Assembly (NCBI GenBank): GCA_964016885.1
Contig: OZ024747.1
Coordinates: 56,854,001-56,918,000, forward strand
Length of the DNA stretch: 64,000 nucleotides
Direction of reading: 5' to 3'
DNA from: Eledone cirrhosa
Taxonomy: Eukaryota
This document shows positions 1,709 through 3,489 of the stretch, in pieces (position 1 is the stretch's first letter; each line of letters opens with the position of its first letter). The position numbers and the translations under genes are program-made. Under the pieces are notes generated by a model, which was given only the letters and a program-made list of their open reading frames with translations, ran no database searches and had not been told where the DNA came from.

Positions 1709-1760
<52 letters not shown>

Positions 1761-1932
1761 AATATACAAGAGAGATAAACACAAATATAAACATACATGT
1801 GTTCGAATTGTAAAGGACCAGGTTTGCTATGCTGAAAAAATACTAACTATGACAATATGGTTTGCCAGACTTAATTTAAAGTAGTAAATTAAGCAAAAGA
1901 ATAACAAACCTATATTGGGCAACTGCCTGAAA

Positions 1933-2014
1933 ACACCTAGACAGTTATAGAAACTATTTCGAAAAATTATTATTAAGTGAAGGCATCACCAACTCTCTGC
2001 TCATCAGTAGGTGT
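1933..2014 (-). ncRNA. Type I hammerhead ribozyme (canonical core, GUC cleavage triplet)
   Basis: Minus strand: ACACCUA-CUGAUGA-[G...C stem II]-GAA-AUAGUU/ucuau/AACUGU-C-UAGGUGU; 7-bp stem I, 6-bp stem III. Confidence 0.8.
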
Positions 2015-2171
2015 AAAAATTAGCGATCCTTTCACTTCTAAAAATATTAGAGGACTGAATTGTGTGCAATATGAAATAACGCATATGTCTTCGGAGCCTA
2101 GCTTGTCTCGAAAACCTATGCCGCTAAAAATAGCAGCCTGGTTAACACAACATTAAAATTAGCTCAACATC

Positions 2172-2320
2172 TATGTATGTATATACATACATATATATAT
2201 GTGCATATTTGTATTATATATATATATAAGTATATATATATACATATATACATATATATACATGCATCTATACACCGCATACATATATATGTATATATAT
2301 ATATACATACGTATGTACAC
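2172..2320. repeat. TA/CA-rich microsatellite
   Basis: Direct reading. Confidence 0.9.
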
Positions 2321-2778: not shown

Positions 2779-3021
2779 TAAATCCTTTAGCATTTACATT
2801 ACTCTATATTTACTATTGTATATTCATGGTGAAGGCTTTATCCTACATAGATATCCCACATAATTATCTCACATAACCTTGAGTCTACAAGATGTTGATG
2901 ATGTTATAGTTTATTTTAAGAACGATATTGTAATGTCAGTGTGAGTTGTTGGTTTTGCCCAGTTTCAAAAAGGGGAAAGAAATCTGGCCAGATACAGCCA
3001 GTTTAAATGCTAAGGGGTTAA
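2779..3021 (+). mobile_element. MITE with (TTAA)CCCTTTAGCATTTA-type termini (piggyBac-like, non-autonomous)
   Basis: Ends aatcctttagcattta...taaatgctaaggggttaa; related copies at 3268, 27290, 49215. Confidence 0.75.
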
Positions 3022-3267: not shown

Positions 3268-3489
3268 TTAATCCTTTAGCATTAAACTGGTCGTGTCCAG
3301 CCAGAATTCTCTTACTCCTTTTTGTCAAACTGGCTGTAACTGGTCATTCATACTGATGTTAAAGTATTGTTCTCAAAAATAAATAATATCAGAATCTCCT
3401 AGATTCGATATTATGTGAGATGATTATGTGAGGTAAAGCCTTTACCATGAAAATATAATAATAGAGTAATGTAAAAGGTAAAGGGTTAA
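3268..3489 (-). mobile_element. TTAA MITE, second copy, opposite orientation
   Basis: ttaatcctttagcatt...aaagggttaa; interior is the reverse complement of 2779-3021. Confidence 0.75.

Follow-up and report, generated by a model that had tools for sequence, protein, structure and literature searches.

A type I hammerhead motif in Eledone cirrhosa probably belongs to a decayed solo copy of a non-autonomous Penelope-type retroelement

Introduction

Type I hammerhead ribozymes are built from a core (CUGANGA, GAAA and UH) placed at a three-way junction of stems I, II and III, of which stem I is open. The numbering and core rules applied throughout this work agree with the available part of PMC4209133. 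Three described systems come closest to the element analysed here, i.e. the metazoan non-LTR retrozymes (Cervera & de la Peña 2020, PMC7229834; Li et al. 2026, 10.64898/2026.07.22.740005), the EN+ Penelope-like elements or PLEs (PMC8557442; PMC4209133) and the pseudoknotted hammerheads, including human C10orf118 (Perreault et al. 2011, PMC3088659). The comparisons below refer to the accessible portions of these papers, according to which the mobilisation of animal retrozymes is still deduced from co-occurrence and phylogeny (10.64898/2026.07.22.740005, PMC7761336).

We analysed a 64,000-nt stretch of contig OZ024747.1 (hereafter the window), and found that a hammerhead motif on its minus strand belongs to a dispersed non-coding repeat of ~510 bp, a family which the preceding sequence-only reading of this DNA had not recognized. 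The motif is probably the type I hammerhead of a solo, slightly decayed copy of a non-autonomous Penelope-type retroelement (a non-LTR retrozyme), and is likely to be a weak cleaver at best.

Like the non-LTR retrozymes (PMC7229834; 10.64898/2026.07.22.740005), the repeat has a unit of a few hundred bases which is non-coding, low in GC and equipped with a single type I hammerhead; it likewise occurs as monomers, a dimer and a near-trimer, and together with PLEs. In a mussel retrozyme family, the usual loop 1-loop 2 nucleotides are missing as well. Judged by DNA-level features (short unit, hammerhead tandems; PMC7229834, PMC7761336), the family would be placed in this class. However, its unit measures 508-520 nt, compared with invertebrate retrozyme circles of ~170-400 nt, and its copies are mostly dispersed insertions of 1-2 units with inverted truncated copies at (TA)n, in contrast to retrozyme arrays. 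Its loop II of 34 nt, predicted to form a pseudoknot with the flank, also sets it apart from the non-LTR retrozymes described in the accessible text.

With the EN+ PLEs (PMC8557442; PMC4209133), the family has in common its insertion as partial tandems, neighbours that are inverted and truncated at the 5' end, a tail that may be absent, (TA)n as target and a repeated unit that contains a type I hammerhead. Unlike these elements, the family carries no RT/GIY-YIG frame, its stem III is a full 5-6 bp where animal PLEs have a minimal or palindromic helix III, and its tail is ~76 nt long (30-40 in PLEs). The pseudoknotted hammerheads (PMC3088659) have a Watson-Crick helix across stems I and II, which is predicted here, together with a short stem II. 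In comparison with the text of that paper, one partner strand here is the 5' flank of stem I, the other is the beginning of loop II, and the helix can be extended to ~22 bp; moreover, C10orf118 is a conserved single-copy intron element, whereas the present repeat is young and multicopy.

Our literature search, which covered article texts, found neither the ~510-bp family nor a type I retrozyme hammerhead with a pseudoknot described; either could be contained in the supplements of PMC7229834 and PMC3088659, in Repbase or in Dfam. Likewise, this search found no paper on non-autonomous Penelope-like elements with a hammerhead in cephalopods. Octopus Penelope families are given in PMC13282606, the accessible part of which does not mention ribozymes.

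Results and Discussion

The hammerhead motif

The features of the locus are collected in Table 1. Re-derivation from the minus-strand letters bore out the central claim of the sequence-only reading, i.e. a type I hammerhead with a 7-bp stem I, a CUGAUGA/GAAA core, the G10.1-C11.1 pair, a 6-bp stem III and a GUC cleavage triplet with its predicted cut. Stem III includes the A15.1-U16.1 pair and one U·G pair, and C17 of the GUC lies at position 1940. The core and all three stems of a type I motif are present; self-cleavage after C17 is a prediction.

Table 1. Features of the hammerhead locus and the surrounding repeat copy (window positions)
Feature	Position	Strand	Remarks
Solo repeat copy, 5'-clipped, without the 76-nt tail	1752..2170	-	unit ~20-437 by BLAST
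(TA)n run, 3' end of the element	1711..1757	.	likely target site
TA-rich microsatellite, 5' end of the element	2168..2320	.	
Type I hammerhead ribozyme motif	1933..2014	-	predicted cut between 1940 and 1939
Stem I, 5' strand ACACCUA	2014-2008	-	pairs with UAGGUGU 1939-1933, 7 bp
Core C3-A9, CUGAUGA	2007-2001	-	N7 varies between subfamilies
Stem II, 5' strand GCA	2000-1998	-	partner strand 1963-1961; G10.1 (2000) with C11.1 (1961)
Long loop II, 34 nt	1964..1997	-	pseudoknot strand, apical GGUGA/UCACU hairpin and A/U linker
GAAA core (1960-1957) and stem III	1941..1960	-	U at 15.2 (position 1956), C in the family
5' flank of stem I	2015..2038	-	predicted partner of loop II
3' flank	1917..1932	-	predicted fold-back onto stem III 3' arm and cut site

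A descriptor combining the core with the stems found one match in the real window and none in 150 block-shuffled windows. The stability of the 82-mer is ordinary (z -0.46). No hammerhead was called in an Rfam search of the window. Even an intact family copy (L009) reached just 16.8 bits against RAGATH-1-hammerhead (RF03152), which is below the gathering score of 56.3, probably owing to the long loop II. Since hammerheads with such loops score under the Rfam thresholds, similar families may be overlooked elsewhere. Window letters 1931-2000 were reproduced exactly in contigs of two of three public runs, which makes an assembly error unlikely; the three runs come from one sample, which may be the assembly's own source.

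A dispersed repeat family

Window positions 2167-1752 correspond in BLAST to positions 20-437 of the repeat unit (92% to copy L010). The latter has a period of 513 bp, and its unit is low in GC and contains no long ORF. A search of the 3.0-Gb genome with window positions 1880-2080 returned 1094 candidates, and all 40 of the 40 that were scored match, at 85-94% apart from the self match. An exact 26-letter pattern had 229 matches (36 for the control), and an exact 15-letter core pattern 300 (2 for the control).

Several other candidates were rejected. A mis-spaced pattern (15 N) gave 11 hits against 19 for its control; one of these hits, L077, is a rearranged copy of the family. Three more of them, L075, L078 and L079, were ruled out as ribozymes, being antisense PLE-like RT remnants. 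Together with L045, they are decayed members of another family, with the motif LY[R/H]DD. A metagenome scan yielded seven matches which we attribute to chance, as none could be aligned to the unit and none showed stems I and III by eye.

We assembled 72 non-redundant loci, picked by similarity or exact motif, and the proportions given below therefore describe a non-random sample. A tree of 73 segments resolved nine subfamilies, each 3-4% diverged internally (the two-member group D was left unscored). The alignment used for counting has 70 rows and omits L102 (truncated flank) as well as L043 and L057 (internal duplications).

Majority sequences of the subfamilies differ at 127 of 523 columns and at none of the 12 core positions; N7 does differ. 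By hand calculation, the chance of finding 0 of 12 is about 0.035, and that of 1 of 14, with 10.1 and 11.1 included, about 0.11, so core conservation alone would be a weak sign of selection. One pair of stem I has undergone a double change (C-G in 43 of 70 copies, A-U in 23), which represents a single evolutionary event. Pairing across the family amounts to 95.8% in stem I, 90.3% in stem II and 93.8% in stem III. The conserved core and the stem I covariation give support to the view that the ribozyme was under selection in the source elements.

Six of the seven copies of the window's own subfamily (L003, L004, L005, L007, L010 and L069) have A at 10.1, i.e. an A·C mismatch at the base of stem II. 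This subfamily was nonetheless amplified, and a fully active ribozyme may therefore be unneeded for spread. The series of nine subfamilies documents the evolution of a hammerhead together with that of its predicted pseudoknot.

Fold of stem II and loop II

Stem II is conserved over 3-4 bp only. The unusually long stem II described in the sequence-only reading survives in part: its apical GGUGA/UCACU helix does appear in the MFE fold, but a straight extension is not a conserved structure, the same level of pairing being reached in 3 of 70 copies, compared with 62 of 70 for a helix between the 5' flank of stem I and loop II. In the abutting register, these 62 copies form at least five of six flank-loop II pairs, and the mean of 5.6 pairs falls to 3.1-4.1 when the strands are slid. 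Column-wise counts fail to separate the long stem II from the pseudoknot (86.7% versus 88.7% paired), since the register of subfamilies G-I is displaced by an indel.

The predicted helix joins 2027-2015 with 1997-1985 (13 bp) and can be extended by 2038-2028 with 1984-1973. When folded with its flanks, the window forms a long hairpin (2038-2015/1997-1973), whose 17-nt loop consists of the stem I strand, CUGAUGA and GCA. In 49 of the 72 copies, the window copy included, at most 2 of 200 shuffles gave an equally good flank-loop II duplex.

Subfamily differences are consistent with this helix. Subfamilies G and H experienced a 2-nt loss in the flank, followed by a loop II change that retained pairing. 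Combined with the loop II of the same subfamily, the flanks of H and I reach -4.6 and -4.0 kcal/mol, respectively, and with A-F loops +0.2 to -1.2. The swap is asymmetric: A-E flanks still reach -3.5 with G/H loops, and the median self-pairing of G is only -1.7. The covariation amounts to a few subfamily-level events, in strands that are U-rich and pair easily.

The top 5-7 bp of the helix are likely to act as a pseudoknot which holds stems I and II together, and it is rather probable that this Watson-Crick helix replaces the usual loop 1-loop 2 contact. The lower arms are predicted to form either two small hairpins (one of them GGUGA/UCACU) or one long helix. Against this reading, nested-fold models assign ~0.1% of the ensemble to the hammerhead fold, and stem I with flanks receives 0%, in a framework (ViennaRNA) where pseudoknots cannot be scored. 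According to the accessible text of PMC3088659, some 40% of hammerheads have such pseudoknots, which can sustain a stem II as short as 1 bp, while the available part of PMC7936874 describes them in type III motifs only.

The same helix could instead be an inhibitory fold, forming first during transcription, running for ~22 bp and blocking the folding of the ribozyme; circular or multimeric RNA would thus be protected, and a short nested stem II would characterise the active form. It is indeed the MFE structure in four of five copies folded as flank plus ribozyme and in the window with flanks of 30-150 nt, and its full extension leaves a linker of ~7-11 nt back to stem II. A second predicted fold-back, which masks the cut site, points the same way. 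On the other hand, the helix ends at the edges of stems I and II in nine of nine subfamilies, so that the stem I strand, CUGANGA and GCA remain unpaired in the loop, the lower arms can fold locally as noted above, and pseudoknots that brace stems I and II are common. We consider a purely inhibitory role appreciably less probable than the bracing pseudoknot.

The second fold-back concerns window positions 1917-1946 (minus strand), where the 3' flank is predicted to cover the cut site and pair back with the arm of stem III; by eye, it is weaker in the oldest subfamily. Its action as a second off-switch is possible on the basis of these predictions.

Insertion anatomy and a candidate helper

More than one segment is present at 52 of the 72 loci. 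Exact head-to-tail junctions (tail joined to head), i.e. partial tandems, occur at 33 of the 72, and inverted 5'-truncated copies on the 5' side, in a 5'-to-5' arrangement, at 34. Terminal 3' ends run into a TA run in 84 of 104 cases. While the 5' ends are scattered, the 3' ends of segments cluster at unit positions 430-439 (46 ends) and 510-513 (83 ends, partly reflecting the end of the query). Both 3' end points (~437 and ~513) contain AUAU. At the family level, the traits listed for PLEs in the available text of PMC8557442 are present, i.e. the partial tandem, the inverted 5'-truncated neighbour, the tail and the bias towards (TA)n microsatellite targets.

Two loci illustrate the tandem organisation. 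L137 contains two complete hammerheads with 508 nt between their cut sites, and its unit folded as a circle has a z of -2.9 against 40 shuffles; L174 is a near-trimer of ~520-nt units, whose three motifs are mutated. Among the segments compared, 5' ends were not enriched at the cut site. Upstream copies often cross this site, and the template would therefore have been uncleaved or circular. In the contigs of the three runs (one sample), no joint showing an empty site was found. Truncated copies at L004, L010 and L017 start at unit ~231-237, inside the stem III hairpin, one of them with a short local duplication, which suggests stalling of the reverse transcriptase or fold-back.

The genome also contains a young Penelope-like family with many intact frames of ~775 aa encoding RT and GIY-YIG (L112-L136, L143:1362-3689). 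Its terminal repeat includes a minimal type I hammerhead whose loop III is a palindromic GUAC, and its copies end in TA runs with an optional tail of ~45 nt (23,308 first-look candidates). No alignable homology was found between the ~510-bp unit and the terminal repeat of this PLE family, the one family compared, which is therefore a candidate helper only. A second PLE-like family (L120, minus-oriented, ~2635) has another hammerhead-like motif, with a longer stem II, after its GIY-YIG frame.

It was also considered that the ~510-bp unit might represent just the 3'-terminal pseudo-LTR of a Penelope-like element that is autonomous and has longer copies elsewhere. The unit insertions do share PLE anatomy, most PLE copies are 5'-truncated according to the accessible part of 10.64898/2026.07.22.740005, and PLE coding remnants lie near several unit copies. 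However, no RT plus GIY-YIG ORF is present in the unit, and coverage plots revealed neither a coding flank nor any other upstream sequence common to the copies compared; at 33 of the 72 loci, it is the unit's own tail that lies upstream of unit position 1. The nearby PLE remnants are of different families that have only the TA target in common with the unit, and the PLE family examined owns a minimal hammerhead. This origin therefore appears improbable.

For the non-autonomous retroelement which we favour, the following sequence of events is proposed. Loci with at least two units would be transcribed, and the hammerhead would cut after GUC and free a unit of 508-520 nt, which may be circularised. 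In this ribozyme, a stem II of 3-4 bp and the Watson-Crick helix of loop II with the 5' flank would stand in place of the loop 1-loop 2 contact. A Penelope-like RT/GIY-YIG protein acting in trans would nick (TA)n and prime at AUAU (unit ~437 or ~513), and the RT would copy from one to nearly three units across the cut site, leaving truncated direct or inverted extra copies. Inserted copies would then decay neutrally.

A more specific version of this scheme is speculative, and we rate it as unlikely. According to it, the retrozyme hammerhead is switched by its own flanks, the short pseudoknot together with two local hairpins being the active form and the ~22-bp zipped helix the off form in a unit-length circle, and the TA-primed insertions of one to three units are footprints of rolling-circle reverse transcription by a Penelope-like RT. 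If true, it would make the mobility of animal retrozymes directly testable. Many copies of the family bear the insertion signature of Penelope elements, and a candidate helper of the Penelope-like type, itself intact, resides in the same genome.

State of the window copy

Two letters of the window copy depart from the majority of its relatives. At 11.2 (position 1962) it has U, where 47 of 52 copies have G, which results in a C·U mismatch at 10.2-11.2; this mismatch, beside the G10.1-C11.1 pair, was missing from the description in the sequence-only reading. At 15.2, U replaces the C found in 47 of 52 copies, and creates a wobble adjoining the cut site. Both private letters were seen in contigs of runs X1 and X2. 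The changes G11.2->U and C15.2->U would both be expected to reduce the rate of cleavage, and strong activity of this copy is therefore doubtful. The earlier description of the ribozyme as canonical and probably active is overstated, although its type, intact core and cut site stand.

The divergence of the window copy from its subfamily majority (3.8%) is an ordinary level of decay. Among the 70 aligned copies, 32 keep an intact core and 11 are fully family-like in core and stems; such low numbers are expected from neutral decay after insertion. As the window copy is a monomer, release of a unit by double cleavage is impossible. Judging from its letters, this copy is likely to cleave weakly at best and is probably a fossil; for detectable cleavage in vitro at 10 mM Mg2+ the chances seem somewhat less than even. 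The locus itself matters little, as one among hundreds of decaying copies.

The sequence-only reading had also raised the idea of an intron, which gained no support: in the window and the 30 kb to its left, the Pfam matches of the 150 longest of 194 candidate frames were to domains of mobile elements or, weakly, to zinc fingers, with no host exon among these frames (a search from which short exons would escape). The ultraconserved intronic hammerheads (RECK, C10orf118) are single-copy and conserved across species, while the window motif is multicopy and decaying. An active ribozyme used by the host, e.g. one lying in an intron as the RECK and C10orf118 hammerheads of amniotes do, is hardly credible, for although all core nucleotides and stem I are kept here (with the core intact in fewer than half of the aligned copies), the copy bears two stem-weakening private changes and ordinary divergence, no host exon is at hand, and in the accessible part of 10.64898/2026.07.22.740005 just one of nine predicted Xenopus retrozyme dimers cut in vitro. 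A host role of any kind is very improbable.

Other elements nearby

Several other elements were noted. By impression, the content of microsatellites, SINEs and LINEs is cephalopod-like. Window positions ~310-1150 contain a LINE remnant with a PHD-like finger hit, which we take to be RTE-like, followed by a SINE-like segment of very high copy number (~1190-1490). Inverted segments of ~70% identity at 2781-3021 and 3268-3487 are part of another high-copy repeat, and a tRNA-like match at 21232-21289 (plus strand, 31 bits) is likely to be the head of a SINE. Near the locus, there are also an open LINE ORF2 frame of 919 aa (L142:2588-5344, minus strand) and an integrase-core remnant (L141:1132-1548, minus strand), and a weak DDE transposase remnant is located at window positions 57412-57891 (minus strand).
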